A program made the position numbers and the translations under genes. Under the pieces are notes generated by a model, which had not been told where the DNA came from, searched no databases, and saw only the letters and a list, made by a program, of their open reading frames with translations. A stretch of 64,000 bases of DNA from a virus, in the UHGV virus genome UHGV-1366603, one strand, 5' to 3'. Below, piece after piece: positions 3,388 through 54,361 of this stretch. Position 1 is the first letter of the stretch. Each line of letters starts with the position of its first letter.

Positions 3388-3419
3388 AAAAATATCTGAG
3401 AAAGATATTATCTATGTGA
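3388..3419 (+). promoter_or_regulatory. promoter-like motif, copy 1 of a tandem 31-nt repeat upstream of 3542
   Basis: aaaatatctgagaaagatattatctatgtga; near-duplicate at 3469..3499; contains the recurring AGATATTATC core. Confidence 0.45.
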
Positions 3420-3541: not shown

Positions 3542-5380
3542 ATGGCTAAAGAGTTTAACGAAATTCCTAACAACGTAAATGCTGGCGCTGCTGGTGTAGA
3601 CCCGGCTCCGTCTTTTGGTGGTGTAGGTGCTGGTGCAGGCAGTGTGGATAACACCCACGCAGCAAATGCTTTCGGTGGTATGACTAAGAACATCTCCACT
3701 TTCGATAAAGCGTTCGGCTATATGTCCTACGTTTCTGCCGCTTCACATTTCACCGCGCTGATTGCGAAGATGGTTGAACGTAACCCGTACCTGAGCAAAT
3801 TCCGCTGCGGCGTTATCGACGGTGTGAATCCAGAAATGGGTTCTGCGGCATACGTTGCTGCGCCAGCAGATGAAAATGGCAGCCACTGGATGTATGGTAT
3901 CTTGTTCTTCGAACACGGTCAGTCTGTACGCTTCCGTGAAATCAACGGTAAAGAAACTTATTACACCCTGGCTTCTCTGTTTGGTCAGGCTGGTGTAATG
4001 GATTCTATCACCAAACAAATCTGCGAACAGCAGAACCTGCCGTCTGTGCAATTCATGGTAATGAACTGCATTCCAGATCTGGGTAAAACGCTGACTGAAG
4101 AGTGGGCTATCCAGCTGATGGGTCAGCTGACTCTGGGTATCTTTGGCCGTATTCCGGGCTACCTGGGTCAGCTGAAACTGACTCGCGGCGATCGCTTCGT
4201 TGCACAGGTAACTGCGGTAGACGAAGGTTCTCTGACTGACGTTAACGGCTCTGCACAACGTGCTGACCTGATGGTTCAGGTTGAACACACTCAGACCGGT
4301 AGCTTCGATACTAACCCGACGCTGATGTCCTCTGAACGTGTTCAGGGTTATCCGAGCGTTGCGGGTGTGGGTTACATCAACCTGCGTTATACTGGTCGCC
4401 GTGCACCTGAAAACGGTGTACAGGATTACAAACAGCTGCAAGCAGAAGTTGTTGTTTCTCTGATGGACTCTCAGTCTTCCGGGGCTATGGTACCAATCGA
4501 ACGTCAGCTGATTGAACTGGCTGCCTTCGCAGAAATCGCCGCTATCGGTGGCTGGCGTGAACGCTTCATGCACTCTCTCAACAAAACCGATCGTCGTTTC
4601 TCCCGCGTTATGGAATACGTAGAGTGGGGTGACAAACGTCCTGATCTGAGCAAAATCGATGGCAACCGCGAAGCTATCGAAGAGTGCCTGAACATGTTCG
4701 CCTACCCAGAAGCTGCGCTGGTTGTGAACCATCGTGCTGGTAACGGTATCGGTGGTCTCTCCACGATGTTCAGTGAAGTTTCCCAGGGTAACACTGGTAC
4801 ACTGTCTAACATCCTGACCATCCTGGACAACATGGCTCCGAAAGGTGCTACGGTGTTCACGCAGCGTTTCGCTGAAATGCTGAAAGTTAATACCATCACC
4901 TGCAACCACGTTGTTATCGCTGGCGTACCGACAGTTTCCGGTCAGTATTTCAGCAACAGCCAGAAACGTAGCTTCCAGGATCAGGACCTGGTGTCTGTAC
5001 TGAGCAAAGTTGGTGATAACCAACACGATGCCTACACTTACCTGTACGCGCAATCTTACTCACACCGTCAGTTCAACGCGACTGAACAGCGTTTGTACCT
5101 GCTGAAGCTGGCCGCTTCCCTGTTCGGCAGCAAACAGCCGGTCGTAACTGGCGAGTCCACCGATTTGGCAATCAACCCGAAATTCGCCAAAGCGCTGCTG
5201 GACTACGTGCGTGATAACTGCATCTTCCAAGTGAATGGTGTCACCGCAGTCAATAGCCTGGCTAATACGTTGTTCTTCAACAACGGCGGTGAAAACTTCA
5301 CTCTGTCTGGTAACGGCCCGAATTCCTTCGGCAGTGACTACAACATGTCATTCGCTTCCGGTAACTACAGCCCTATCTGA
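3542..5380 (+). CDS. abundant early protein; candidate chimallin (phage-nucleus shell protein) homolog, 612 aa
   Basis: Strong RBS (aaggataaataaaATG); codon usage heavily skewed to CTG/CGT/GGT/ACC; sits immediately upstream of the beta' N-terminal gene, as the shell gene does in phiKZ (gp54 then gp55, from memory); strong terminator downstream. Assignment is by synteny and size only. Confidence 0.55.
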   Translation: MAKEFNEIPNNVNAGAAGVDPAPSFGGVGAGAGSVDNTHAANAFGGMTKNISTFDKAFGYMSYVSAASHFTALIAKMVERNPYLSKFRCGVIDGVNPEMGSAAYVAAPADENGSHWMYGILFFEHGQSVRFREINGKETYYTLASLFGQAGVMDSITKQICEQQNLPSVQFMVMNCIPDLGKTLTEEWAIQLMGQLTLGIFGRIPGYLGQLKLTRGDRFVAQVTAVDEGSLTDVNGSAQRADLMVQVEHTQTGSFDTNPTLMSSERVQGYPSVAGVGYINLRYTGRRAPENGVQDYKQLQAEVVVSLMDSQSSGAMVPIERQLIELAAFAEIAAIGGWRERFMHSLNKTDRRFSRVMEYVEWGDKRPDLSKIDGNREAIEECLNMFAYPEAALVVNHRAGNGIGGLSTMFSEVSQGNTGTLSNILTILDNMAPKGATVFTQRFAEMLKVNTITCNHVVIAGVPTVSGQYFSNSQKRSFQDQDLVSVLSKVGDNQHDAYTYLYAQSYSHRQFNATEQRLYLLKLAASLFGSKQPVVTGESTDLAINPKFAKALLDYVRDNCIFQVNGVTAVNSLANTLFFNNGGENFTLSGNGPNSFGSDYNMSFASGNYSPI

Positions 5381-5467: not shown

Positions 5468-6835
5468 GTGAAAGACAGATTACAATACTTCGGTGTATCA
5501 GGGCGATTAATCAGTCACGATAAAATGTTACGTGACGCTTTCAAAGAGGCGGAGGAAAAGGGCTATAAACCGCCGATGATTATCAATGATGTTGCGAAAT
5601 ATAAAGACACCATTGAGACGTCAGAGTTGATTAACCGAATCTTACAGAACCGGATAGTCGACGAGACGCTAAATTCGGCACCTATTTGTAGTATTGATTG
5701 TGAAGCACCTATCGTTCATCGATATAATCTCGGAATGCGATGTCCTACCTGCGGCTATGTGGTGACAGAACATCGTATTGTTTCAGAAGTCTGGATTCGT
5801 GCCCCGGAGGAAATAGGCAACTTTATTAACCCACGATTCTGGTCGATGTTTAACGCTTTCTTCGGTTCTAAACTTAAGAAGTTTAACCGAAACAAAGTGA
5901 CCGTAGAACGTGGTTCTGATTTATTGATGTGGATGTTAGATCCGTGTTATAAACCTGATAAAGACGAAGGTACTCGATCCCGAATAATCAAACGCATCTT
6001 TAGCGAGTATCAAGTTCCACGCGGTATTAGGAATTTTATTGACCACCATCGAACAATATTCAATATCTTAACTTCTCCTGAAGTCTGGAAAGAAATTTAT
6101 CCACCAACGAAAAATAACCGATATGAGAGCGAACGTACTCGCTTAGAGTGGAAAAAGTTCTTCGAAGAACAATCGCACACTTTCTTTCCGGTTCATCTTC
6201 CAATCATTTCACCCAAACTGATCGTTACGGAGGAACGACGTCAGGGTATCTTTATCGATCCTGTTTATACCAGTGCAATAGACGCGGTTAAGAACATCGC
6301 GTTACTTTATACCAATGCACGACGCATCCCAACCCATTTCATTATTAGTCGCGCATTAAAAGCAAATCGTCAGTTAGCGTACTTCTATATTGACCATCGT
6401 CAGGAGGTAATGGAAGGTAAACCTGGGTTCTATCGTGCCAAGTTAGGTTCAACACACATCCCGTGGGGTGGTCGTGTAACAATCTCTCCAATTTCAGAAC
6501 CGCACGACGCTATGAAGGTTATTGCACCTTGGCGTTGGTTAGTGACGTTAGAATCTGTAGCTATTGAAAACAAACTCGGTCGACGGAACTTCACACCACG
6601 GCAGTGTGAACGTGTTATTGCATTTGCATCAATGCAGTACGTACCGTTGGTTCATGAAATTATCAACGAACTTATTAAGGAGTCTCGTGGCGGTTACGGC
6701 CTGATGATATCAGCGCTACGAAACCCGACGCTTGTACAGTTGTCTATTCAGACATTATTTATCTCAGCTGTTAACCCTGATGTTACACAGTGCTCGTTAC
6801 GTATCTCCGATCGCGTCATCAAAGCTCCGAATGCT
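5468..6835 (+). CDS. multisubunit RNA polymerase beta' subunit, N-terminal fragment, exon 1
   Basis: GTG start with GAGGA RBS. Zn-finger-like CxxC...CPTC; GFYRAKLG..WGGRVTISP matches beta' [38 protein letters not shown] matches NRAPTLHRLGIQAF; exon ends ...RVIKAPNA (last nt T at 6835). The track ORF runs on to 6967 only because the intron is in frame until a stop. Confidence 0.85.
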
Positions 6836-7185
6836 AAAATTTGGCCCACTAGACGGGAAACCTCTAGTGCGTATCCCCCGAATTGCTGGGAACTCCTAAA
6901 GCTTACGATCCCGACAGGGTGGCGAAAGCCAGAAACAATTCGTAAGATAGCCTATGCTAACCAATAATGCTAAGGGTTGTGATAATGGATAACCAGCAGC
7001 GATGAAAATCGTTCAACGACTATCGAAAGGGTAAAACCGAGTAGAGTAGCTGCTTAGTTTAGCGGCGAAGTGGGGGAGACCTACGGGTAGCAATACCTAC
7101 GGTTATGATATAGTCTGTGCCCATGTGAAAACATGGGAGGGTGTCATTGCACACCTGCTCCAAAAGGAATGGAGTGGACAAACAG
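6836..7185 (+). ncRNA. group I self-splicing intron, 350 nt, no ORF, interrupting the beta' gene inside NADFDGD
   Basis: 5' exon ends in U (6835) and the intron ends in G (7185). P-like aattgctgg (6881..6889), Q-like ccagcagc (6993..7000), R-like gttcaacgactat (7011..7023) and S-like gatatagtctg (7107..7117) with GACUA/UAGUC P7 pairing. Flanking hairpins cactaga/tctagtg (6847..6869) and cccatg/catggg (7120..7137). Splicing restores NA|DFDGDQ. Confidence 0.75.
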
Positions 7186-7425
7186 GATTTCGATGGTGAC
7201 CAATTACAGGTTAGACGTTTAGTCGATACCACGGAGATGGATTTAGCGCTGGCTTATCGTCCAGATAACGGATTTATGTCCAGCACAAACGTAGACGAAG
7301 TGTCTAGCAGCATGGTGTTACACAATGAGCTTATCAGCATGGAAAACCGTTTCTTACGCGATACCGAAGAAGATCTGGAGGCGGGTATCGCCATCGACTC
7401 AGAATTAATCTTAATGGCGGGGTAG
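7186..7425 (+). CDS. multisubunit RNA polymerase beta' subunit, N-terminal fragment, exon 2 (begins DFDGDQLQV...)
   Basis: In frame with track ORF 7141..7425; DFDGDQ...RPDNGFMSS matches E. coli beta' DFDGDQMAVH...SPANGEPII. The GTG at 7141 is taken to be inside the intron, not a real start. Confidence 0.85.
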   Translation, partial: DFDGDQLQVRRLVDTTEMDLALAYRPDNGFMSSTNVDEVSSSMVLHNELISMENRFLRDTEEDLEAGIAIDSELILMAG

Positions 7426-17123: not shown

Positions 17124-19364
17124 ATGAAAACACCAGTTGAGCTATTGAGCAGCGTCGCTGACCGTGAAGTCAATATCGCACAGGTATCAGGTGCAAGGGC
17201 ATCGATGGTAGGTAACCATATGAAGTCCTCGGTGCCGATTGACCATCCTGAACCGTCACCACACTTTACGGGCGCAGATACCAATTACCACGATTTTCTG
17301 TTTAACGATATTGTGGAAGACAGTGGGAGCATCTGTCATTACACAACTAAGGAAGGTAGACAACGTCGTGCAACGTTTACCCGTTATGGTCGTCGTGGGG
17401 ATTCCCGTGCGCTGGAACATGCGATATTCTTCCGCCGTGCAGAATGCCGTATTCCGGGCAAAACAATGATAGACGTTATCGAGATTAACTTTTATACTAA
17501 TCACGATAACGTGTTCTCTTCCGAGAAATGGGAATCACCAAAACTGCGTAGTTTGTTACGTGGTGAAACCGACCAGTTAGAAAAGGATGAAATCCTGACG
17601 ACGATGCCGTGCATGGTGGATGGTGAATTCGCAGACAGTGTAGTGCTGCCAACAGTTACCATTTCACACCCAGACATTATCGAGGATTCCTACACGATTT
17701 CCGAAGAAGCGGCACAGAAGCTTCACGGGTATGGGTTGAAGGTTATCGAGAAAACATTGCGTGAAGATGAATTCTTACTGGATACCTACGGTTATAACGA
17801 TCCCGAGGGAAATCGTGTACCGCGCTATTTTCCAGACGTGGGTGAAGCAATTCGTGACGACGGCTTAGTTATTGCTTCTCGTCGTTTCGATGACCTGTAC
17901 GCAGCGATTGATGCAACCTTAGGGGAAACCCAACACGTTTCTCCGTTCTTCGATAACTGTGATTACGTGGATGCCGATCCGATACACTATAAAGCGCGTT
18001 TGGAAAACAACCACGAACTGATGGAACGTAGCGGAACTCGCATTGTTGATATTCAGGTTTGGCGTGATGAAACGTCATGCGGTAATGGAACGAATAACAT
18101 TAACTGTACTGAAGAGAACAAACGTGAGCTTGACAAATACGCATTGGCGTTAAAGGACTACTACAATGCGATTGTTCGCTTCTATTTCTCCGTGTCGAGA
18201 GATAAAAACATTATCTGGTCTCCCAAAGCGTGTGTGTTGTTGGAGAAAGCTTTTGCATCCGAAACGTACGAAGTCTACGCAGAGTTTCGTGAAGAAATTC
18301 GCGGAGTGATTGAAGACGCAATTCGTCGCGGCGAATACGGTAAAGAGAACGTAAGTCAACAGATTATCTCTAAACTGACTTCGCCTGTTCAGCGTGGATT
18401 AAGCGATCCCATCAATACGTATACAATTCGTATCGCGGTACGTTATCCGATCCCGGTGACGGTGTCTTCTAAGATTACCGACCGTTCGGGTACGAAAGGG
18501 ATTGTGGGTCGTGTACTGCCAGTTGAACAGATGCCAATTAACGAGTTCGGCGAACGTGTCCACGTACTACGTTCAATGAACGCCGTAATTCGTCGTTCTA
18601 CTTACGCCGCGCTGTTCCACATGTATTGGTCAGCAGCATCTGAACAGCTGAAGATGCGCCTTAAACCAATGCTGGATGAAGGACGTATTGGTGAGTGTTG
18701 GGAAATCCTGATGGACTACCTCTCACGCTATAATCCAGAATGGGCGAACACGTTACAGGCTACGCATCCTACGGAGGATTTGCAGCGAGAACTCTTTAAA
18801 GAGATTTACGATTTCACTATCCGCATTTACTTACCTCACGAACTTGATGACACTCCGGTGGAAATCAGTGAACGTTTAGGTGAGTTTAAACCCCGTAAGT
18901 CTAAACTGCTTATTACCAATTACGACGGTAAACAGGAATGGACAAAAGACGAGTTTTACGTGGGTGGTGTAGAAACATTACGGCTTGATAAAACGGGACG
19001 TGAATTCTCAAGTATTTCGTCGATGTACCTGAACTACCTGGGCACGATTGATGCGTCTAACCAAGGACGTGGTTCGTATCCGGTAAACTATAAAACGCTA
19101 AAATGGGCTGGTCCTTCGGAAGAACGACTATTAGCGGGTTATGGTCCAGGTAACTACGAAGAGGTTCACGATAGGGCAAATAACCCTGCTGTACATCGTG
19201 AGATTTTAGTAGGGCTGTACCGATCTCAAACCCCTTCCAATCCGGGCGTACTGGTAGACCGGAATAAGCTCCCATTAGGAGATTCGCAGATTGACAGAAT
19301 GATGAAAAACATTCATAGCTGCGAAGGGTTTGAATTGGTGAAAATGAAAAGGGGCGAAGAATAA
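17124..19364 (+). CDS. multisubunit RNA polymerase beta subunit, C-terminal portion
   Basis: TDRSGTKGIVGRVLPVEQMPINEFGERVHVLRSMNAVIRRSTY aligns with E. coli beta [49 protein letters not shown]; aaaggag RBS. Confidence 0.7.
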   Translation: MKTPVELLSSVADREVNIAQVSGARASMVGNHMKSSVPIDHPEPSPHFTGADTNYHDFLFNDIVEDSGSICHYTTKEGRQRRATFTRYGRRGDSRALEHAIFFRRAECRIPGKTMIDVIEINFYTNHDNVFSSEKWESPKLRSLLRGETDQLEKDEILTTMPCMVDGEFADSVVLPTVTISHPDIIEDSYTISEEAAQKLHGYGLKVIEKTLREDEFLLDTYGYNDPEGNRVPRYFPDVGEAIRDDGLVIASRRFDDLYAAIDATLGETQHVSPFFDNCDYVDADPIHYKARLENNHELMERSGTRIVDIQVWRDETSCGNGTNNINCTEENKRELDKYALALKDYYNAIVRFYFSVSRDKNIIWSPKACVLLEKAFASETYEVYAEFREEIRGVIEDAIRRGEYGKENVSQQIISKLTSPVQRGLSDPINTYTIRIAVRYPIPVTVSSKITDRSGTKGIVGRVLPVEQMPINEFGERVHVLRSMNAVIRRSTYAALFHMYWSAASEQLKMRLKPMLDEGRIGECWEILMDYLSRYNPEWANTLQATHPTEDLQRELFKEIYDFTIRIYLPHELDDTPVEISERLGEFKPRKSKLLITNYDGKQEWTKDEFYVGGVETLRLDKTGREFSSISSMYLNYLGTIDASNQGRGSYPVNYKTLKWAGPSEERLLAGYGPGNYEEVHDRANNPAVHREILVGLYRSQTPSNPGVLVDRNKLPLGDSQIDRMMKNIHSCEGFELVKMKRGEE

Positions 19365-21463
19365 TGAAGGCGACTCCGGTTCACGTAAGAGACTTGTGCA
19401 AGTTGAATTCGGATCAGGTGTGGCTACTTCGGGGCGTTTACGACGTGTCCTTCGACGATGGGGTCACGTTGAGAATGTCCGGTCGACACATTAAGTTGAG
19501 CTGGCCGTATTGGGGATTAACCCAGTTTTATCCCCAGGTGCCAATCTCGTCGAACATGGCGTATAAGCATGGCGACACGGCAACTGACGATGCGCATCTG
19601 CGCTTTATGTCGTTGGCGGCTGTAGCAGCACGTAAGGCCGGAGTGGATCTGGCCGATACCCGTTACCTGTTATCGCAGCACGTTTATGCAAACGCGTTTA
19701 ACCTGACGGTGAAAAACCTGTTGTCGTATTGTGTTACCATTGACTACGATACGATGATGGAGATTTATCAGCATGAAAACTTCAAGCTAATTATTGAGTG
19801 GTCTAAACACTATCCGACGGGTTACGATGAAGAGGGTAACGATAAGGTAGAAGAAGCCTATCAACTCATTGAGAAAATCTTTAAAGATCCGAGACTCTCA
19901 AACAACCCAGTTGTCATGTCTGTGTTAGACCGCACACTGAAAATGGATCAGATTCTCCAGGCTTACATTCGTGGTAAGACTTCAGAGATTGACTCCCGTG
20001 TGTATTCTAACCAGGTATGGGAAGGTTTCTTCACCGGCCTGCATTCTGTTATCAGTCGACTGAAAGAAGCAGGTGCGACATCGCGTTCTCACCTGTATAA
20101 CACCGACAAGATTGCAGACGCAGAGTACGCATCGCGTAAGTTGCAGTTAGCGGCTAACGTGCTGATGTTCTTCGATTACGAAGACTGTGGTACACATCAC
20201 GTACACAGACACACCTTTACGAATTCGCCGTTGGAAGAAGCGAAATTCAAAGCGATGAAGGGAATGCGTTATCGCTTCGAAGGTACTGGTGGTCCGTGGT
20301 TACGATTCGAAGATGGTGAGTTTGAGAAAGTCTTGAACAAACCTATCGAGTTCCGTACCGCGATGTGTTGCAAAGGGATGTCACGACAGACTATCTGTGC
20401 AACGTGTATGGGTGACTTGATTTATAACCTGTCACCTGGCACGTCACCGGGTCACCTTGCGTCAACCGCAATTTCGGAAAAGGGTACTCAAGGTATTCTG
20501 TCGACGAAACACCTTGACTTCCTGCGTTATCTGCTGAACTTGGTTTTGTCACCAAGAATGCGTGATTATCTCACGGAGTATAAACACAACTCCGTTAAAG
20601 GGATTAGTTTACTGGAGAAGCCGCAATACGGTACTTGGGATGAATACCAACTGGTAATTTCGGATGAAGTCTATTCAGAGATTAGCCAGATTGCGTACCA
20701 TGAAGACCTGGACGATATTGATGAAACGGCACTCCCGGAAATTAATGACCTTACGTTTGTTCGTTTAGATGCAGAAGGGAATATCCTGGCAGAAGATCCG
20801 ATCGACGTTCGAATGGGCGTCTGCGGTAACTTCTCTAAGTCATTCCTTCGCTTCTTCTTGAAGAATCGTGATAAACTCGTATTTCCCAGCAAGAAAACGG
20901 TGCGTGTTCCGCTAAAAGGATGGAAACCGTCCTGGCCGATCCTAATTTATACGAATCGGTCTGAATCTATGGCGGAGTTTGTAGCAGGGTTGGAATTGAT
21001 TTTACGTTCGGTAGCATCGGACAAGTCAGATAACTTCGAACAGTTCTCGGACGAGTCAATGCGTTTGAGCAAGAAGAGTGGTAAGGTTAAACCGATTACC
21101 CTCGTTCAGATGCGTGGTGCCACGGAGAAACAATGTACTCATGCGTTGTTCTACGTGTTCAAATATATCCAACGTAAACTCAAAGGGATTCCGATGACGC
21201 ACATCGCGATTATGTTGGCAATCTCTCGTGTTGAGTCACCTACTAACCCATTCCCGGCAGTAGGGTTTGACAGTGAGGATGCTGATGCCGCAGAAGGAAA
21301 ACGCTTCGAAGATCACAATACGCTGATTGCGATGCGTTCTGCGATTCCGATGTTGCTGTTTGAGGGACAACAGAAGAACTTGGACAACGTGCGTTTCTAT
21401 ACGTCACGTAAACGTCCTGCTTCGTTGTACGACAATTCTGTCGCGGCAACGATTATTGAGTAA
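19364..21463 (+). CDS. probable RNA polymerase beta' subunit, C-terminal portion (bridge-helix-like segment)
   Basis: TAATG overlap with the beta gene; GHLASTAISEKGTQGILSTKHLD resembles the beta' bridge helix [21 protein letters not shown]. Similarity is modest. Confidence 0.5.
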   Translation: MKATPVHVRDLCKLNSDQVWLLRGVYDVSFDDGVTLRMSGRHIKLSWPYWGLTQFYPQVPISSNMAYKHGDTATDDAHLRFMSLAAVAARKAGVDLADTRYLLSQHVYANAFNLTVKNLLSYCVTIDYDTMMEIYQHENFKLIIEWSKHYPTGYDEEGNDKVEEAYQLIEKIFKDPRLSNNPVVMSVLDRTLKMDQILQAYIRGKTSEIDSRVYSNQVWEGFFTGLHSVISRLKEAGATSRSHLYNTDKIADAEYASRKLQLAANVLMFFDYEDCGTHHVHRHTFTNSPLEEAKFKAMKGMRYRFEGTGGPWLRFEDGEFEKVLNKPIEFRTAMCCKGMSRQTICATCMGDLIYNLSPGTSPGHLASTAISEKGTQGILSTKHLDFLRYLLNLVLSPRMRDYLTEYKHNSVKGISLLEKPQYGTWDEYQLVISDEVYSEISQIAYHEDLDDIDETALPEINDLTFVRLDAEGNILAEDPIDVRMGVCGNFSKSFLRFFLKNRDKLVFPSKKTVRVPLKGWKPSWPILIYTNRSESMAEFVAGLELILRSVASDKSDNFEQFSDESMRLSKKSGKVKPITLVQMRGATEKQCTHALFYVFKYIQRKLKGIPMTHIAIMLAISRVESPTNPFPAVGFDSEDADAAEGKRFEDHNTLIAMRSAIPMLLFEGQQKNLDNVRFYTSRKRPASLYDNSVAATIIE

Positions 21464-21466
21464 ACG

Positions 21467-21492
21467 AGAGGGGCCTGCGCCCCTCTTTTTTT
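21467..21492 (+). terminator. intrinsic terminator
   Basis: agaggggc-ctgc-gcccctct hairpin followed by a T7 run. Confidence 0.85.
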
Positions 21493-21505
21493 GTAAGAGG
21501 GGAGC

Positions 21506-23215
21506 ATGTACGAATTCCACATGACCTTTACCAGCATGGGGGTAAGGGTTGAAGTCCCGTGCCGACAGATAGAGTCGGCGATACTTAAGTGGGCAGAAGA
21601 ACATATGCACGCTCCTAAGATGGGCAAGCAATACGGTCGTATATTCACTGAACGTGGCGATCCGTATTACGCGCATATACCTTCTCTCCGCTCGTTTATC
21701 TTCCACAGGAACTTTTCTGAGCGTTTACGCATTATTATTAATCGTACGGCTACCGAATTTGGCATTGAGTATAAGCTTTACGAGCATTACTTAACGCAGG
21801 GAACACCTTATCGGTGTAAGTTTGAAAACTACGGCTTTAAGATGGTGGAGGACGATGAGAAATCACGTTTCTTTTACCAGAATGCTGTGGTTGAAACGGC
21901 TTGCGAACCAAATCGTTTTCAAACCATCTTTGAAATTGGTACAGGGATGGGTAAATCGAAAACGAACATGAAAGTAATGGTACGTAAGGGTGTCAGGACG
22001 CTACTGATTCACCGTCCGACGTACATCTCAAAATGGATGTTTGATTTAACTGAAGACCCAACGGGCTTACGTGAGTCGAAAGATGATGTTTTGGTTATCC
22101 AAGGCGTTCAGGCTATCTACGAAGCGTTAGAGATGGGGGAATCAGGCGAATTAGACAAACGTGGGATTAAGGTTATCATTATCTCAACGGTAACGTTGCA
22201 GCGATTCCTTAAAGAGTACATTAATACTGCCGCAACTAACCCAGTGAACATTGATGATTTCTACAACACCTTAGGCGTTGGGTTTTTGTCAATGGATGAA
22301 GTGCATGAGCATTTCCATCTGGTGTACATGGCAGGGATAATGCTCAACCCACCACCGTCTGTTGAGATGTCTGCGACGTTACAGCCGGGTGAATCAAAAG
22401 CGTTTTTAGCCGAACGGTATCGAGAGCGTTTTCCACAGGAGTCACGTATATGTATTCCGATCATTCCTGCTGTACACGTTAAGGCGTTGTATTACAGCAT
22501 TGAGAATAAACGGTTTGCGTGGTGGGCGAATAAGATGACGCCGTATAACCACAAGCTATTCGAAGGTAAGTTAATAAGTGAGAACATGCACTTATCTTAC
22601 GCGGATATGGTGTGGGACGTCATCGAGCGAACGTATCTGGCGGGTTACCAACCTGGTCAGAAAGTGTTGGTGTTGTTTGCAACCGTTGCGATGTGTGAGT
22701 TCTTTACAGAGTACGTGCGAGAGAAACTGGCACAGTCTGATAAGTTCCACGCGCTGATGGTTGCGAAATACAACGCGGGGGATTCGTATGACGACTTTAT
22801 TCAAGCGGATTTCTCGATTTCAACACCAGGGAAAGCAGGCACTGCGGTCGACAAACCGGGGTTGGTTCACATGTACATTACCACCCCTGTGGAAGACCAG
22901 CAGTTAAACCGTCAGATGGCCGGTCGTCCGCGTAAGATACTTCACAACGATTGGGGTGAACTCGATCCTGTTGTGTGGTTATTCCATTCACTCTCGATAG
23001 GGAAACACTGCAATTACTTGAATGCGCGTCAAAAGTCGCTGAGTGATTCTGTGTTGTCGTTTAAGATAGCCTCTTCACCGTATGTTGTAAGGAAAACCAA
23101 TGTTACTACCGCCGCAGCCGACCGAGCCAACAGCACCGTATGCCGGGCTGAACTTAGCAAGTTTTCTCGAAAAGGTTTTAAAGGCATACCCAGACGTCGA
23201 AAACGTCGTCGATAA
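21506..23215 (+). CDS. SF2 DExH-box helicase
   Basis: Motif I GTGMGKSKT, motif II MDEVHEH, motif III SAT, motif VI QMAGRPRK, in canonical order. The 3' end overlaps the next ORF by about 116 nt, so the true C-terminus is uncertain. Confidence 0.75.
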   Translation: MYEFHMTFTSMGVRVEVPCRQIESAILKWAEEHMHAPKMGKQYGRIFTERGDPYYAHIPSLRSFIFHRNFSERLRIIINRTATEFGIEYKLYEHYLTQGTPYRCKFENYGFKMVEDDEKSRFFYQNAVVETACEPNRFQTIFEIGTGMGKSKTNMKVMVRKGVRTLLIHRPTYISKWMFDLTEDPTGLRESKDDVLVIQGVQAIYEALEMGESGELDKRGIKVIIISTVTLQRFLKEYINTAATNPVNIDDFYNTLGVGFLSMDEVHEHFHLVYMAGIMLNPPPSVEMSATLQPGESKAFLAERYRERFPQESRICIPIIPAVHVKALYYSIENKRFAWWANKMTPYNHKLFEGKLISENMHLSYADMVWDVIERTYLAGYQPGQKVLVLFATVAMCEFFTEYVREKLAQSDKFHALMVAKYNAGDSYDDFIQADFSISTPGKAGTAVDKPGLVHMYITTPVEDQQLNRQMAGRPRKILHNDWGELDPVVWLFHSLSIGKHCNYLNARQKSLSDSVLSFKIASSPYVVRKTNVTTAAADRANSTVCRAELSKFSRKGFKGIPRRRKRRR

Positions 23216-23483
23216 ACTGTGTACCGACCCAACGATGTCCGTGGCGTTCCACTACTATATGGTAACGGAACACTTCGCCGGTATGCAGATTTTCCAACGT
23301 GGTAAATGTTATTACATTACGCGTAACTCCAGTATCCGCAACACCTCGTCTTACGAGCTTTACAGCTGGGTACTGTGGTCTGAAAACCCTGCGGGCAATA
23401 TTGATGAAAACCCGAAGGTGGCTTATCGACTATACTCTGAGAAATGGCACAGTTGGGTAGCCGTTCCTCACGATAGCAATTAA
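23100..23483 (+). CDS. hypothetical protein
   Basis: aagga RBS before ATG; terminator downstream; overlaps the helicase ORF tail. Confidence 0.6.
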   Translation: MLLPPQPTEPTAPYAGLNLASFLEKVLKAYPDVENVVDKLCTDPTMSVAFHYYMVTEHFAGMQIFQRGKCYYITRNSSIRNTSSYELYSWVLWSENPAGNIDENPKVAYRLYSEKWHSWVAVPHDSN

Positions 23484-23495
23484 AAAGTACAGAAC

Positions 23496-23528
23496 GGGTG
23501 TATATTGTGTACACCCTTTCTTTTTTTG
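23496..23528 (+). terminator. intrinsic terminator
   Basis: gggtgta...tacaccc hairpin followed by a T-rich run (tttctttttttt). Confidence 0.85.
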
Positions 23529-23544
23529 TTAAAGGAATATTAAA

Positions 23545-24117
23545 ATGTCACGTCGTAAGAAGAAACCCGCTTATAACCCACGTACTCTGGCGAAAAAAGA
23601 ACTTCGCGAAAGCGTGAAATCAGTGTATAAACTACTGGTTATCTTTGAAGAACAGATGAAGATTCTGGCGGAGCGTATCGACAAAGAACGTGAAGTCTTG
23701 GAAGCTCTGGAGGAGCCAGAATACAAAGCCTTTGCTATTAAAGCGTTGGACGAAGCCAAAGCTGCGTTCGTTGGCCTGATGGCAGAAGGGAAAGAAAAAC
23801 TGGGTGCAAAACTTATTGAGATCGATAAGGTTGCAACCAATGCAAAAACCATGCTGGAAAACAACAGCTGGGCGTCTGTGAAAGACGAGTTTAGCGTGGA
23901 AAGCATGAACGTAACCACGTTAGAGACCGAAGCCGTGTGGCTGGGTAAAGATATCCAGGGCGCTGCCATTGAAATCCTGTCGCTGTATAACGGCCGCGCT
24001 GATTTTGTAAAACGTGCTATGCACCAGGGCCACACCTTCGCAGAAGCCTACGAACTGCTTCAACAAGCTGAAGCCGCAGTAAAACAACCCGACACTGAAG
24101 TCGTTACCGAGGTATAA
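23545..24117 (+). CDS. hypothetical protein (basic N-terminus, predicted coiled coil)
   Basis: aaaggaat RBS; MSRRKKKP...; E/K/A-rich heptad-like sequence. Confidence 0.8.
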   Translation: MSRRKKKPAYNPRTLAKKELRESVKSVYKLLVIFEEQMKILAERIDKEREVLEALEEPEYKAFAIKALDEAKAAFVGLMAEGKEKLGAKLIEIDKVATNAKTMLENNSWASVKDEFSVESMNVTTLETEAVWLGKDIQGAAIEILSLYNGRADFVKRAMHQGHTFAEAYELLQQAEAAVKQPDTEVVTEV

Positions 24118-26580: not shown

Positions 26581-27432
26581 ATGATTGACATTTATACAGA
26601 TTACGCCGCCGTTCTTACCGTCAATCGTTCGGAGGAACGTGCTGCACCGTTTCTGGATTTAGTCACGCTTTGCATGGACTACGGATACGACGTTGCGTTA
26701 AGTGATGTGTACTGGCAACCGTCTTCTGACCCGGCAGACGAAACGGTTCGATTAGAAGGCATTATCGTTAAGTGTGCGGTAGCGTTAGGTAACCGTCTAG
26801 GGATAGCGTTAAATCCCCAGGAAGTTTACCATAAACCTAAAGAGACCGTACGTATTCTGGACGGTATTACTTCCAAGTTTGAAGAGTTTGAAGACACCGA
26901 TACGCTTTACGGTATCGTGATGTCAGGCGAGACGCCGGAATACATTCTGGAAAGTATCTGTCGTTATGTTTACGGTGACGACAATATTCATTTCGAAAAT
27001 TTGGTTGTTCGGGTGTCTCCTCGTGTAATGACCGTGATGAGAAACTACCTGTCTTCTGTGACCGTAGACGAACAATTAGCGGCAGGTAACGACAAACGTT
27101 TGTCTCGTATCGCCGATTACCTTCGTTTATATCCTCAAAACCCATCAGCATTCGTATTCCTTAACTTACCAGACCTGCCTGATTTGACCGTGGTTCAGCA
27201 GTCGCTGGTCTTCGATATCGAGGACTACACGGAAGCCGAGCTGTTGGAAATGTATGCAGTGGGCTTAACGATTATCGATAACGAGGATTACGAAGATGCG
27301 TATGGTGCGTTATCAGAGAACCTGGAGAAGCTCAATAACGAAGGGTTAAAACCGATCCCTATCTTGCAACCTGCTCTGGAAAGCTTGAAGGAGATTTATA
27401 AGGTAGCGGAGGAAGACAATGACGAGATTTGA
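26581..27432 (+). CDS. hypothetical protein
   Basis: Track ORF starts at TTG 26545 inside the terminator T-tract; the ATG at 26581 with aaagg RBS is preferred. Confidence 0.75.
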   Translation: MIDIYTDYAAVLTVNRSEERAAPFLDLVTLCMDYGYDVALSDVYWQPSSDPADETVRLEGIIVKCAVALGNRLGIALNPQEVYHKPKETVRILDGITSKFEEFEDTDTLYGIVMSGETPEYILESICRYVYGDDNIHFENLVVRVSPRVMTVMRNYLSSVTVDEQLAAGNDKRLSRIADYLRLYPQNPSAFVFLNLPDLPDLTVVQQSLVFDIEDYTEAELLEMYAVGLTIIDNEDYEDAYGALSENLEKLNNEGLKPIPILQPALESLKEIYKVAEEDNDEI

Positions 27433-28720
27433 GTTTCTGGTGGCGGCGTGTAAAGCCGAAGCCTGGCGTCGCTTAGTGTGGCGTATTGCAATATTCAACA
27501 TGTCAGTGTTCCCGTCGAATCGTGAAGAACCTGAAGCGTTCGATATTACGTACATTGACGGAATGCCGCACTACTACGCGGTAGAAGATGGGAAAGGCGA
27601 TTGGCAGCCGATTACCGATGGCGTGAAGGATCAAGAACTGTTTATCCCCGAAGAACAGTTTGAGTTGAAAGTCGATGACTATCCAGGATTGGAAGGACCG
27701 ATTCCTACTACCGTAGGACGTTATATCTTTAACTGGGTTGTTATCTGGTATGCGTTCGGTACTCGCTTGCCGTATATGGGTATTTCACAAAACCCGTTAG
27801 AGTATCGTAAAGAGATGCACCGTCGCTGTTTGGATCACGAAACCGATGAACCCGAGAACGAAGGTGCTATTCGTCCGAGCATGATAGAACGCTTTGTAAG
27901 CGGCTTACACGAGCTTGCACCGTTAACCGCTGGTATTGCACCAACAGGTACACTTAGAAGCCTTACAGTGCATCCTGATGCGTATAAAATACGTGATGCG
28001 TTGCTGTTAAAGCATAAAGACGAGTTAGACGACCCCGCAGTGATTGTTAAGATAGAAAAAGCACTGGACGAACTGGATAAACAGTGGTTGTCGGGTGACC
28101 AATCTATCGAGTTCTATAACTCACCGAAATCACGAATGCGACGTCGTAAGTTGATGCTGATGTACGGGATTGAATCGTCTTTCCAGGAAGGGGGTAACTA
28201 TACGTTAATTCCTAACGCACTGGTGGAAGTCGATAAAGCGGGAATGGATAATCTGGTCGCGAAGTTTAACTCTATTCGTGAAGGTTCGTTCTCGCGTGGT
28301 GCGGAAACCGCGAAAGGCGGGGAACAGGTACGTATCATCCAGATGATTTTCCAGAACCACCGAATCGTTGCAGGTGATTGCGGGACGAAACTCACGCACC
28401 CTGTGGTTATCACAAAAGACAACGTAAAACGTTACGTTGGGATGAATGCGATGGTTAATGGGAAACTAACCTCGTTGACGGAAGAGTTTTTGAATAGCCA
28501 GCTAGGGAAAGTTGTGCGCCTACGCCGACCCATCTTATGTCAATACGGCCACATCGACTGCTGTACTGCGTGCTCCTCCGAAGCGAAAGGTGAAGAACCT
28601 CGCGCTATCGCGGCGGATATTTCGTCAGCGTTCTCTAACGTTATGTCCGTGGCAATGGCCGCAATGCACGGTAAAGAAACCGTCGTTCAAGAATACGATC
28701 CGTTGATCCATATCACCTAA
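27419..28720 (+). CDS. hypothetical protein
   Basis: gagga RBS; overlaps the upstream gene. Confidence 0.8.
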   Translation: MTRFEFLVAACKAEAWRRLVWRIAIFNMSVFPSNREEPEAFDITYIDGMPHYYAVEDGKGDWQPITDGVKDQELFIPEEQFELKVDDYPGLEGPIPTTVGRYIFNWVVIWYAFGTRLPYMGISQNPLEYRKEMHRRCLDHETDEPENEGAIRPSMIERFVSGLHELAPLTAGIAPTGTLRSLTVHPDAYKIRDALLLKHKDELDDPAVIVKIEKALDELDKQWLSGDQSIEFYNSPKSRMRRRKLMLMYGIESSFQEGGNYTLIPNALVEVDKAGMDNLVAKFNSIREGSFSRGAETAKGGEQVRIIQMIFQNHRIVAGDCGTKLTHPVVITKDNVKRYVGMNAMVNGKLTSLTEEFLNSQLGKVVRLRRPILCQYGHIDCCTACSSEAKGEEPRAIAADISSAFSNVMSVAMAAMHGKETVVQEYDPLIHIT

Positions 28721-29242: not shown

Positions 29243-29249
29243 TAAGCAT

Positions 29250-29290
29250 TACCCTACTCCCGAGAGGAGTAGGGTAGCTTTTATTTTTTC
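29250..29290. terminator. bidirectional intrinsic terminator between convergent genes (repeat copy 1)
   Basis: taccctactcc-cgaga-ggagtagggta hairpin followed by ttttatttttt; near-identical copy at 34616..34657. Confidence 0.8.
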
Positions 29291-34606: not shown

Positions 34607-34657
34607 AAAAAGAAGTACCCTACTCCTTTTCGGGAGTAGGGTAGCTTTTTATTTTTC
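34604..34657. terminator. bidirectional intrinsic terminator between convergent genes (repeat copy 2)
   Basis: A7 tract, then taccctactcc-ttttcg-ggagtagggta hairpin, then tttttatttttc. Confidence 0.8.
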
Positions 34658-42904: not shown

Positions 42905-42980
42905 TTAGACTTACGCTCGTACAGTTCTTGAAATAAATCAATAGGGGAACGACGTGTTCCCCTTAGAGGAAAAGCTTAAA

Positions 42981-44243
42981 ATGGCAAATTTCGCAAAAAC
43001 TCGCGCCGCTCGTGAATCGATGGAAGCTACTGCTACTGTAGTTCCAGACGGCATCGAACTGCCAGCAGAATCTGTTGAAGGTACTCTGGCCGATATCGAA
43101 CATGATACCAAACCGATCGAAGCCCTGGACGCTGACGCTGAACTGCTGGCCGAAGACGGCGACGAAACTGATGCTCAACTGGATGTCCTGGATGAAGCTC
43201 AGGCCGCTGCCGACGGTGAAGGTGCTGGTGAAGACGGCGAAGAGCCGATGGACGCTGAAGAAGATATGCCGGACGACGCAGCGACTGCGCTGGACGTTGC
43301 TCAGGAATCTATCCGTTCTCGTTGGAACTTCGAACACCGTTCTTCCGTTGCACACGAATCCTACGGTTCTCGTAACCGTCGCCAGGTTGCTCGTGAATCC
43401 CTGTGGGAAGACATTAAAGCATTCCTGAAACGTATCTGGGAATGGCTGAAAGAACAAGGCCGTAAGATCAAAGATCGTTGGCTGAAATTCTCCAACCAGG
43501 GTAAATCCATCCAGGCTCGTTCTAAGAAATACGACGATGCTATTCGTAAACTGGGCAAACAGAAGAAAGATGAAATCTCTGGTGGCTTCATCAAGTCTCT
43601 GTCTATCGACGGTAAATTCGTTGGCGACGATCTGTCGCGCCTGAAGAATATCCTGAACCACGTCTCCACCTACTACAGTGGTAACGTTCAGAGCTTCCTG
43701 AACAACGGTACGGATATGGTTGGTAACGTCGTTAAAGGCGATGGTGCTAAAGTTGAGAAACTGAAAGCAGACTTCGCTGCTCTGGCTAAAGAAGACGTTA
43801 GCAAGTTCAAACTTGGTAACATGGCTCTGAAGATGGAGTACGACGAAGAAGGCGGATTTAGCTCCAGCTATGTGGAAGCTGAAAACCGTGCTGAAACCAA
43901 CGTGAAAACTCCGTCTGTTAGCGAACTGGCTAAGACCAATGCCTTCTTCAACGAAGTGGGTAAACAGATCGAGAAGAACGTTCTGGAATATCGTAAGACT
44001 GAACAGGCTCGCGAGAAATTCAGCCAGCAGATTGAGAAGCTGCTGAAAGAAATCGACAGCGTGAAGATCGACGAAAAACCGCAACTGACCGAATCTGTAC
44101 GTACCGCACGTCGTTACATCAACAGCATTAACCAGGCAGTGTCTCTGGGCGAGAAAGTTATTTCCTCTACTCAGAAACATCTGGCTGGCGGTCTGAACGG
44201 CTATATCTCCGCAGGTATCGCTGCTTACGAAAAATCTAAATAA
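42981..44243 (+). CDS. paralog B of the tandem pair
   Basis: Same N-terminus MANFAKTRAARESMEA and same end GLNGYISAGIAAYEKSK; track start GTG 42954, ATG 42981 with GAGGA RBS preferred. Confidence 0.8.
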   Translation: MANFAKTRAARESMEATATVVPDGIELPAESVEGTLADIEHDTKPIEALDADAELLAEDGDETDAQLDVLDEAQAAADGEGAGEDGEEPMDAEEDMPDDAATALDVAQESIRSRWNFEHRSSVAHESYGSRNRRQVARESLWEDIKAFLKRIWEWLKEQGRKIKDRWLKFSNQGKSIQARSKKYDDAIRKLGKQKKDEISGGFIKSLSIDGKFVGDDLSRLKNILNHVSTYYSGNVQSFLNNGTDMVGNVVKGDGAKVEKLKADFAALAKEDVSKFKLGNMALKMEYDEEGGFSSSYVEAENRAETNVKTPSVSELAKTNAFFNEVGKQIEKNVLEYRKTEQAREKFSQQIEKLLKEIDSVKIDEKPQLTESVRTARRYINSINQAVSLGEKVISSTQKHLAGGLNGYISAGIAAYEKSK

Positions 44244-44260
44244 TCTCTGATTGTTTAGTA

Positions 44261-44307
44261 GGAGAACCACCCTGTAATGGGGTGGTTCTCCCTTTTCTTT
44301 TTTTTTT
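44261..44307 (+). terminator. intrinsic terminator
   Basis: ggagaaccaccc-tgtaat-ggggtggttctcc hairpin followed by a T-rich run. Confidence 0.85.
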
Positions 44308-44322
44308 CGCATTAAAAATAAT

Positions 44323-52413: not shown

Positions 52414-52419
52414 AATTAT

Positions 52420-52457
52420 CCCGTTACCTTTGTGGGTAACGGGATGTCCTTTTATTT
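52420..52457 (+). terminator. intrinsic terminator
   Basis: cccgttacc-tttgtg-ggtaacggg hairpin with a T-run (ccttttattt) shortly downstream. Confidence 0.7.
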
Positions 52458-52576
52458 ACTCGTAAACGCGTCTTAGACGTTGTTTTACACCTTAAGACGA
52501 TTAATGGTGTTTAAAAAATAAAAGGTCGTCAGAATGCGATACAGCGCGTTTTAGAGGGTGTTTTAATTAAAATATT

Positions 52577-52592
52577 TTCAGATATATATTAC
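52577..52592 (+). promoter_or_regulatory. promoter-like motif TTCAGATATATATTAC
   Basis: Contains TATATTAC, which I recall as the phiKZ early-promoter core; about 58 nt upstream of the small gene at 52650. Confidence 0.5.
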
Positions 52593-52649
52593 TTAGGTGA
52601 GAGAATTACGTAATACTCATTTATCGAATACCTAATTAGGAGCTATATC

Positions 52650-52793
52650 ATGATTTCTGTAAAACACAAAAAAGCTATCTTCGCTGTTGTTATCGCTGTT
52701 GTTCTGGGTTGCCTGTACCTGGATATCGACAAAGGCTACGACACTTGCATCGACAACGGTAACTCCGTTGCGCAGTGCACTGGTCGTGGTTAA
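52650..52793 (+). CDS. small hydrophobic protein, 47 aa (not in ORF track, below its length cutoff)
   Basis: TAGGAG RBS; MISVKHKKAIFAVVIAVVLGCLYLDIDKGYDTCIDNGNSVAQCTGRG; host-optimal codons; own promoter-like motif and terminator. Confidence 0.6.
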   Translation: MISVKHKKAIFAVVIAVVLGCLYLDIDKGYDTCIDNGNSVAQCTGRG

Positions 52794-52800
52794 TGTATAA

Positions 52801-52828
52801 GGCACCTTCGGGTGCCCTTAATTTTTTA
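52801..52828 (+). terminator. intrinsic terminator
   Basis: ggcacc-ttcg-ggtgcc hairpin followed by a T6 run. Confidence 0.85.
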
Positions 52829-52847
52829 TCTATTGGAGTATTTTTAA

Positions 52848-53663: not shown

Positions 53664-53669
53664 AAGCAA

Positions 53670-53712
53670 CCCCTAATCCCGAAAAGGATTAGGGGTACAC
53701 TTTATTTATTTT
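53670..53712 (+). terminator. intrinsic terminator
   Basis: 10-bp stem cccctaatcc/ggattagggg followed by a T-rich run. Confidence 0.85.
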
Positions 53713-53737
53713 CGCTCTTAAAAAAGGAAATTGTGTC

Positions 53738-53893
53738 ATGAAGAATGTTAATGCAATGCTTAACCAGTCATTTGTTAACCAACAGCGTTTTCAGGAACGC
53801 TTAGCACAACTTAAAACACAACACAGACCGCCACAACAAAGAGTGGTTAAGAGCAAGTTTGGCGAAATGGTTTTCGAAAGAAAATCTTTCTAA
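53738..53893 (+). CDS. hypothetical small protein, 51 aa
   Basis: aaaaaggaaa RBS; ORF MKNVNAMLNQSF...; its own terminator follows. Confidence 0.5.
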   Translation: MKNVNAMLNQSFVNQQRFQERLAQLKTQHRPPQQRVVKSKFGEMVFERKSF

Positions 53894-53902
53894 TAACCGT
53901 TA

Positions 53903-53929
53903 AGGGGGTGTGACAGCACCCCCTTTTTT
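53903..53929 (+). terminator. intrinsic terminator
   Basis: gggggtg-tgacag-caccccc hairpin followed by a T6 run. Confidence 0.8.
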
Positions 53930-54052
53930 ACGCTTTAACTTTTCCAAAGAGAAGTTAAAGCAAGGTACGCTGCCACAACAGCGTACCTTTTACAACACCA
54001 TTACGTTTCCGTAATGGATTTCTTTAATCACCCTACAAAGAGGGCTTATACC

Positions 54053-54226
54053 ATGAACAATGGTTACTACTTTACTGACAAAATGCTTGCAGAACAGTAT
54101 GCAGCAAAAACCAATTTACAGCAACGTATCTACGAGTATAGTCAACTCGGCGTGAATAAACGATTAAAACCATCCACCAACCGTTTCACACAGATAATCA
54201 CTGAAAAAAGGAGCGAACGCTACTAA
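54053..54226 (+). CDS. hypothetical small protein, 57 aa
   Basis: Track ORF 54014..54226; ATG 54053 with gaggg RBS preferred. Confidence 0.5.
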   Translation: MNNGYYFTDKMLAEQYAAKTNLQQRIYEYSQLGVNKRLKPSTNRFTQIITEKRSERY

Positions 54227-54234
54227 CTAATACA

Positions 54235-54254
54235 GGGGGTGCACTACCACCCCC
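54235..54254 (+). terminator. putative terminator hairpin (weak T-tract)
   Basis: gggggtg-cactac-caccccc hairpin; a T10 run lies about 45 nt further downstream. Confidence 0.35.
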
Positions 54255-54361
54255 TACTTGGTTCAGTAGTTGACTTTCGTTCATAATTATTAGATGTCTT
54301 GTTTTTTTTTTGCTTTTCGGGACGCATAAGGGGTCGTAGGGGGAGCCGAAGCTCCCCAGAC

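Follow-up and report, generated by a model that had tools for sequence, protein, structure and literature searches.

A split beta/beta' gene pair of a jumbo phage probably encodes two subunits of a five-subunit non-virion RNA polymerase

Which RNA polymerase is encoded by two adjacent and overlapping genes of the virus genome UHGV-1366603, the enzyme packaged in the virion or the non-virion enzyme? The question arises from a stretch of 64,000 nucleotides of this genome (the window, which here means the whole stretch that was analysed), in which a first-pass annotation made from the letters alone had recognised fragments of a split RNA polymerase without deciding between the two enzyme sets. 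Both open reading frames (ORFs) lie on the + strand at exactly the positions it had given and are intact, with ORF1 encoding 746 amino acids and ORF2 encoding 699. The active-site peptide that it had singled out, GTKGIVGRVLPVEQMP...VHVLRSMNAVIRRSTY, is located at ORF1 residues 456-494, and the junction of the two genes reads GAA GAA TAA TG AAG, which bears out the TAATG overlap with a single shared base. Our analysis makes it very probable (about 0.93) that ORF1 and ORF2 encode the C-terminal portions of beta and beta' (betaC and beta'C) of the five-subunit non-virion RNA polymerase (nvRNAP) of a jumbo phage of the phiKZ/SPN3US type. The window also encodes the N-terminal portion of beta' (beta'N) with the Mg-binding DFDGD motif, the N-terminal portion of beta (betaN) and a gp68-like subunit. 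The coordinates of these features are collected in Table 1.

ORF1 matches the Pfam family RNA_pol_Rpb2_6 over residues 402-508 with 25.3 bits, above the gathering score of 23.4, and it matches PHROG 3295 ('RNA polymerase beta subunit') with an E-value of 9e-255. Its best match among PDB sequences is chain C of the phiKZ non-virion enzyme (7ogp_C, gp71-73; 1e-30), followed by chain C of the AR9 non-virion enzyme (3.7e-16) and then by many bacterial beta subunits at their residues ~800-940. In an hhalign comparison with a profile of 30 homologues, ORF1 residues 5-675 align with E. coli beta 658-1283 (probability 98.6%, E 7e-16). Because of this span, ORF1 corresponds to the C-terminal half of beta and does not cover a complete subunit, as the first-pass annotation had proposed. 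ORF1 contains the region equivalent to NMQRQAVP, and both E187 and D188 of its ED motif are invariant across the 30 homologues. The same is true of K450 and K458, which align with K1065 and K1073 of E. coli beta and with K386 and K394 of gp71-73. An AlphaFold (AF2) model of ORF1, with a predicted local distance difference test score (pLDDT) of 80 and a predicted template-modelling score (pTM) of 0.71, retrieved phiKZ 8que_C first in a Foldseek search (1.6e-44, template-modelling (TM) score 0.65-0.78), then AR9 chain C and bacterial beta (7e-27). The contribution of ORF1 to the enzyme comprises the ED motif, the double-psi beta-barrel of the beta side, which carries the two lysines, and the C-terminal clamp and flap regions.

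For ORF2, Pfam and NCBIfam were uninformative, and its identity was therefore taken from PHROGs, a search of PDB sequences, profile-profile comparison and a fold search. ORF2 matches PHROG 3015 with an E-value of 1e-222 and 742 bits. With the PHROG E-value of ORF1 and the passage of ORF1 above its Pfam gathering score, this value indicates that the matches of the pair are not due to chance. Among PDB sequences, ORF2 has a match of 1.2e-32 to phiKZ gp74 (7ogp_D), spanning residues 7-556, and one of 6e-4 to AR9 chain D. An hhalign comparison using a profile of 32 homologues places ORF2 residues 195-386 on E. coli beta' 734-938 (probability 85.6%, E 5.5e-6). This segment of E. coli beta' comprises the F-loop, the bridge helix, the second zinc site and the first trigger-loop helix. 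Four cysteines of ORF2 (C275, C336, C345 and C348) and H383 are invariant across the 32 homologues and align with E. coli C814, C888, C895, C898 and H936. The cysteines also align with C288, C341, C350 and C353 of gp74, which are zinc ligands in the structure paper (PMC8287921). The AlphaFold model of ORF2 has a pLDDT of 74, and its Foldseek matches are led by 8que_D (5.7e-28), followed by AR9 7s01_D (1.2e-14) and bacterial beta' (~6e-8). The TM-scores of this search are low (0.25-0.37), which is expected of an extended multi-domain chain modelled at this pLDDT. The elements contributed by ORF2 are the bridge helix, the zinc site and, of the trigger loop, the first helix with its histidine. 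The earlier suggestion that ORF2 is probably a C-terminal portion of beta' and carries a bridge-helix-like segment is thus upheld by gp74, hhalign and Foldseek, and the matches to PHROG 3015, gp74, E. coli beta' and chain D of the phiKZ and AR9 enzymes leave ORF2 within the RNA polymerase family.

The choice between the two enzyme sets was addressed by local blastp against the phiKZ subunits of both polymerases, using E 0.01 as the cut-off for calling no match. ORF1 matched gp71-73 at 9e-29 and ORF2 matched gp74 at 5e-39, and neither ORF matched any of the virion subunits gp149, gp178, gp80 and gp180 at that cut-off. The comparison with phiKZ that the first-pass annotation had recommended thus returned only non-virion subunits for the pair. 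A separate gp80-like gene lies 6 kb downstream of the pair, and its product is 72% identical to SPN3US gp42. Because this is a virion subunit gene, both enzyme sets are represented in the window, the virion set by this one paralogue, its remaining subunits lying outside the window. On PHROG 2962, the family of the virion paralogue, ORF2 scores 23 bits, as against its 742 bits on PHROG 3015. Identity to the SPN3US proteins is 71% between ORF1 and gp34 and 73% between ORF2 and gp35; a genetic and proteomic study of SPN3US identifies gp35 as the beta' subunit of the nvRNAP and groups gp42 with the virion enzyme (PMC5105663). The gene order of the window is collinear with phiKZ gp50-gp82, Asesino gp35-gp68 and SPN3US gp18-gp47. 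Taken together, the blastp results, the PHROG split, the orthology to SPN3US gp34/gp35 and the published assignment place ORF1 and ORF2, in all probability, in the non-virion set, which is the point that had been left open.

For each of the five non-virion subunits of phiKZ, the window encodes a homologue, in agreement with the multi-gene split polymerase of phiKZ-like type that had been suspected. The gp68-like gene provides the fifth subunit; in phiKZ, gp68 is a sigma-like subunit required for promoter binding (PMC8287921). Two statements of the first-pass annotation need correction. The beta N-terminal portion had been reported as not identified in this window, and betaN is present near its downstream end. 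For the beta'N gene at 5468..7425, the outer coordinates were right, but the gene is not one continuous ORF, as its frame stops at 6967 and resumes at 7141..7425. The frame is broken because a group I intron separates the two parts. Rfam RF00028 matches 6825..7137 with 61 bits and an E-value of 5e-13, and the fold z-score of the intron is -4.25. The predicted boundaries follow from a U before the 5' splice site (pairing with G in P1), a G as the last base, and the restoration of both frame and motif. Removing the intron would join ...KAPNA to DFDGDQ... and give a product of 535 amino acids, as compared with 533 for the intron-free Asesino gp40. The spliced beta'N aligns with phiKZ 7ogp_A at 7.8e-37 straight across the junction, and this chain of the phiKZ cryo-electron microscopy (cryo-EM) structure is named PHIKZ055 plus PHIKZ056.1; the phiKZ intron therefore lies at the same site. 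Introns in the polymerase genes of phiKZ were an early prediction (PMC10914365). Since DFDGD is encoded by exon 2, we infer that the active enzyme needs beta'N splicing. Full-length relatives of the intron, with 70-73% identity, occur in the SPN3US-like phages SaP7, Proteus phage 7, phiKp_32 and EC001, and several of these matches fall under annotated RNA polymerase beta subunit genes.

Table 1. Features of the putative non-virion RNA polymerase genes and of their surroundings in the 64,000-nucleotide window
Feature	Position	Strand	Evidence or remark
beta'N exon 1, orthologue of phiKZ gp55 / SPN3US gp23	5468..6835	+	PHROG 2987, 5e-137
Group I intron without ORF, 350 nt, in the NA|DFDGD catalytic codons (predicted boundaries)	6836..7185	+	Rfam RF00028
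beta'N exon 2, begins DFDGDQ	7186..7425	+	reading frame and motif
gp68-like fifth subunit	11904..13565	+	gp68 2.5e-9; 7ogp_B 8e-10; PHROG 3209; phiKZ synteny
AGATAGATATTATC, AT-rich motif, candidate early promoter	17081..17094	+	30 nt upstream of ORF1 start
Shine-Dalgarno AAGGAG of ORF1	17111..17116	+	7 nt before ATG
ORF1, probable betaC of non-virion RNA polymerase, orthologue of phiKZ gp71-73 / SPN3US gp34	17124..19364	+	sequence, profile, fold
Shine-Dalgarno-like AGGGG in the last ORF1 codons	19350..19354	+	9 nt before ORF2 ATG
TAATG stop/start overlap of ORF1 and ORF2	19362..19366	+	TAA 19362-19364, ATG 19364-19366
ORF2, probable beta'C of non-virion RNA polymerase, orthologue of phiKZ gp74 / SPN3US gp35	19364..21463	+	sequence, profile, fold
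Terminator-like hairpin, 9-bp stem with 6 G-C pairs, then T-run	21466..21494	+	3 nt after ORF2 stop
Virion-set paralogue, gp80-like	27419..28720		blastp gp80 1.6e-46; PHROG 2962 at 2.7e-169
betaN, orthologue of phiKZ gp123	59965..61740	+	gp123 6e-20; 7ogp_E 1.9e-17; PHROG 2943 1.9e-170

How might the pair be expressed? The AT-rich motif AGATAGATATTATC has its only exact match in the window upstream of ORF1. With at most one mismatch it occurs at 3399, 11887, 17081, 44326 and 58832, in every case on the + strand and between genes, and with at most three mismatches it occurs 14 times in the window against 4.6 expected. The genes preceded by these sites include ORF1, the gp68-like gene and the gene in the shell-protein position, together with the operon leading to betaN, and a further site resembling it is listed at 13298 on the + strand. 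In Asesino, four matches (6497, 14716, 16132 and 19955; 0.11 expected) lie in equivalent places, including upstream of gp51, the orthologue of ORF1. A review of jumbo-phage polymerases gives each such phage a conserved AT-rich motif of ~10 nt upstream of its early operons, and it counts the nvRNAP genes among the early genes, which the injected virion enzyme transcribes (PMC7598289). For these reasons we read AGATAGATATTATC as a candidate early promoter of the virion polymerase. A scan for sigma-70 promoters over 16600..23600 was uninformative (9 sites against 9.8 expected), in keeping with a phage that makes no use of the host polymerase. With the strong Shine-Dalgarno sequence AAGGAG before ORF1 and a terminator-like hairpin after ORF2, the pair looks like one bicistronic unit, and a similar hairpin at ~16707-16735 closes the preceding gene. 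These features suggest that ORF1 and ORF2 may form a bicistronic early operon. The stop and start of the two genes overlap by 1 or 4 nt as TAATG, TGATG or ATGA in 17 of 17 related loci (at least 54% identity), and a GGGAGGA-like Shine-Dalgarno sequence within the upstream gene is conserved in the relatives. Translational coupling for a 1:1 output, which we likewise infer, would fit the conserved overlap.

Several observations weigh against the proposed identity and expression of the pair. The profile searches that the first-pass annotation had recommended for both genes were borne out in part, with ORF1 passing Rpb2_6 and ORF2 without a Pfam match; indeed, neither Pfam nor NCBIfam gave a meaningful match for ORF2. 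The hhalign comparison of ORF2 with E. coli beta' is only moderate, and its AF2 model is poor over residues 195-247, so that the bridge-helix call depends mainly on homology to gp74. In the expression model, the promoter role of AGATAGATATTATC is argued only from position and conservation. Terminator-like sites in the region are not in excess (7 against 6.4 expected), and the hairpin at 21466 is therefore argued from its strength and position. Finally, ORF2 has a Shine-Dalgarno-like sequence of its own and the phiKZ genes are separated by a 30-nt spacer, both of which count against coupling.

These last points bear on a different account of the junction, according to which the nvRNAP genes are real, but the overlap reflects genome compaction and ORF2 is initiated independently at its own Shine-Dalgarno sequence. 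In all relatives, AGGGG or GGGAGGA precedes the start of ORF2 by 7-12 nt, the phiKZ genes have independent Shine-Dalgarno sequences, and short overlaps are common in the window (e.g. 32933/32936 and 45949/45952). Against this, the TAATG/TGATG/ATGA arrangement persists to 54% protein identity although the nucleotides of the junction vary, and the complex requires both products in a 1:1 ratio (PMC8287921). We regard independent initiation as possible, if on balance unlikely. In the reading that we prefer, the injected virion RNA polymerase would start an early bicistronic transcript at AGATAGATATTATC that would end at the hairpin after ORF2. Ribosomes finishing ORF1 at TAA could restart at the overlapping ATG, aided by the internal Shine-Dalgarno sequence, and this reinitiation would give near-equimolar ORF1 and ORF2 products. 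The five subunits would then assemble, with the intron of the beta'N mRNA having to be spliced for an active enzyme, and the complex may transcribe the middle and late phage genes without the host polymerase, as in phiKZ. It is tempting to take the overlap one step further. The conserved overlap of 1-4 nt between betaC and beta'C in the SPN3US/Erskinevirus clade might be an assembly device that ensures side-by-side synthesis and co-translational pairing in the cytoplasm. The resulting heterodimer would nucleate the five-subunit complex before its entry into the phage nucleus, and the active enzyme would be further gated by self-splicing of the ORF-less beta'N intron. We offer this as a speculation that we consider doubtful.

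The distribution of the pair bears on whether these genes are functional. IMG/VR contigs of 151-225 kb and sequencing-run assemblies contain proteins identical to those of the pair, as does an assembly of Salmonella enterica serovar Chester, where NCBI labels the protein identical to ORF1 a 'hypothetical protein'. This record, and the interruption of the beta'N gene, could be taken to mean that the genes are decayed or inactive copies in a phage remnant within a bacterial genome. However, the protein identical to ORF1 sits on a contig of 223 kb, a length that matches a complete jumbo-phage genome, and near-identical contigs of 151-225 kb are present in a viral contig collection. Compared with their orthologues, both ORFs are full length, with invariant catalytic and structural residues, and the interruption of beta'N is a bona fide group I intron whose removal restores NADFDGD. 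A pseudogene or remnant is therefore very improbable, and we reject this explanation on account of the full-length ORFs, the invariant residues and the genuine intron. The contig of 223 kb is the longest in the cluster of proteins identical to ORF1, and its length suggests a complete jumbo-phage genome that was co-assembled with, or carried by, the Salmonella isolate. The Salmonella Chester record would also point to Salmonella as the host.

Least credible of all is that the pair belongs to the virion-packaged polymerase, the enzyme responsible for early transcription after injection. In its favour, the beta and beta' homologues of both sets are split, the PHROG label for all of them is 'RNA polymerase beta subunit', and ORF2 has the weak secondary match to PHROG 2962 given above, yet we reject this assignment because the blastp matches are restricted to the non-virion phiKZ subunits, a separate virion paralogue is present, and the top structural matches are the phiKZ and AR9 non-virion enzymes.

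The phage itself appears undescribed. Its best DNA match among 50,697 phage records has ~72% identity, and, among the homologues found, the named proteins that come closest have 65-71% identity, with SPN3US gp35 at the 73% noted above. Publications already describe this type of enzyme, with the sites at which it is split, its five subunits and its structure, and the SPN3US and Asesino orthologues are annotated as RNA polymerase subunits. As the phiKZ-like two-polymerase system has been studied since 2014-2015 and its non-virion enzyme has been solved by cryo-EM, the pair offers little new biology. What the analysis does provide is a fixed annotation for this phage, whose ORF1 product is identical to a protein that NCBI labels 'hypothetical' in a Salmonella assembly, and a single 64-kb stretch that carries the complete non-virion enzyme together with one virion subunit. 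Further results are a compact group I intron, free of an endonuclease, at the catalytic-site codons of the phiKZ intron, and a candidate early-promoter motif common to the phage of the window and to Erwinia phages. The intron and the motif could serve comparative work on jumbo-phage transcription and intron mobility.

Other genes and sequences around the pair were also noted. The gene at 3542..5380 (612 amino acids) occupies the position of the phiKZ shell protein gp54, between the homologues of DNA polymerase/gp52 and beta'N, and matches PHROG 8316 at 2e-242. It has no match among PDB sequences and no blastp match to phiKZ gp54, so that, if it is the shell protein, it must be very divergent. 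The formation of a phage nucleus, for which synteny and PHROG 8316 are the only support, is a possibility that we do not claim as shown. The same gene contains an antisense ORF of 436 amino acids at 3743..5053. Further downstream, the gene at 15323..16702 is the equivalent of phiKZ gp70 and matched it by blastp, whereas the gene at 13599..15302, the positional equivalent of phiKZ gp69 (the import factor Imp1), gave no blastp match to gp69. In the products of both genes, the C-terminal ~40-90 residues are of low complexity, rich in Gly, Ser and Phe, with many FG/SFG repeats. In the Asesino orthologues of these two genes the tails are rich in Gly and Leu, and in phiKZ gp70 the tail is rich in Met and Gln; the composition of the tail differs among the window, Asesino and phiKZ, and the tail therefore seems to be kept as a feature while its composition changes.

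Elsewhere in the window, long ORFs face each other on opposite strands at two places: 42954..44243 (+, 429 amino acids) lies opposite 42963..44312 (-, 449 amino acids), a case in which length alone does not single out the coding strand, and 56475..58760 (+, 761 amino acids) lies opposite 56643..58700 (-, 685 amino acids). Near-identical hairpins at 29243..29290 and 34607..34657 (CCCTACTCC ... GGAGTAGGG, followed by a T-run) stand at convergent gene ends and look like a reused bidirectional terminator. The intervals 52414..52847 (434 nt) and 53664..54361 (698 nt) have no ORF of at least 100 amino acids and lie in the part of lowest GC content (0.426); neither a tRNA nor an Rfam family at gathering score was found in them. 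A tRNA scan of the whole window likewise found none, and the composition of the window is unremarkable, with a GC content of 0.43-0.48.

The closest known systems are Salmonella phage SPN3US (Seoulvirus), with gp34 and gp35, and Erwinia phage Asesino (Erskinevirus), with gp51 and gp52. These are direct orthologues of the pair, at 71-75% identity in protein and ~72% in DNA, with a collinear gene order and the same one-base overlap of stop and start. SPN3US gp35 has been published as the C-terminal subunit of nvRNAP beta' (PMC5105663). Unlike the beta'N gene of the window, the beta'N genes of these two phages (SPN3US gp23 and Asesino gp40) lack an intron.

The reference enzyme is the nvRNAP of Pseudomonas phage phiKZ (gp55, gp68, gp71-73, gp74 and gp123; PDB 7OGP, 7OGR, 8QUE and 9RJS), which has five subunits, as does the set in the window, and in which beta and beta' are each divided into the same N- and C-terminal parts. 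This enzyme is absent from virions, made early and rifampicin-resistant, and it transcribes late genes, according to PMC4666361, PMC8287921 and PMC7598289. The two phages share a neighbourhood that runs through DNA polymerase, the shell-protein position, beta'N, SbcD, gp68-70, betaC, beta'C and helicase, as well as the same catalytic lysines, bridge helix, zinc site and trigger helix, although their proteins are only 21-27% identical. They differ in their introns. Whereas ORF1 is continuous, phiKZ gp71-73 is interrupted by an intron with the HNH endonuclease gp72, and, at the NA|DFDGD site that it shares with the window, the phiKZ beta'N intron contains the HNH gene gp56, in contrast to the ORF-less intron of the window. 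Spacing differs as well, since betaC and beta'C are 30 nt apart in phiKZ and overlap by 1 nt in the window, and phiKZ gp123 lies ~55 kb from gp74, compared with 38.5 kb from the pair downstream to betaN in the window.

The nvRNAP of Bacillus phage AR9 (PDB 7S00, 7S01, 7UM0 and 7UM1) has the same split architecture, its chain C matching ORF1 at 3.7e-16 by sequence and 5e-36 by fold, and its chain D matching ORF2 at 6e-4 by sequence and 1e-14 by fold. AR9 is nevertheless far more distant, with uracil-containing DNA and a different promoter-specificity subunit (PMC7598289). In bacterial RpoB and RpoC, the catalytic core can be aligned over beta 658-1283 and beta' 734-938, at ~20-24% identity and in conserved blocks only. 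Unlike the bacterial enzyme, the phage enzyme uses no alpha or omega, splits beta as well, and has its genes in the order betaC-beta'C and not rpoB-rpoC. Cyanobacteria, according to a review, split beta' at the place where the split site of jumbo-phage beta' lies (PMC7598289).

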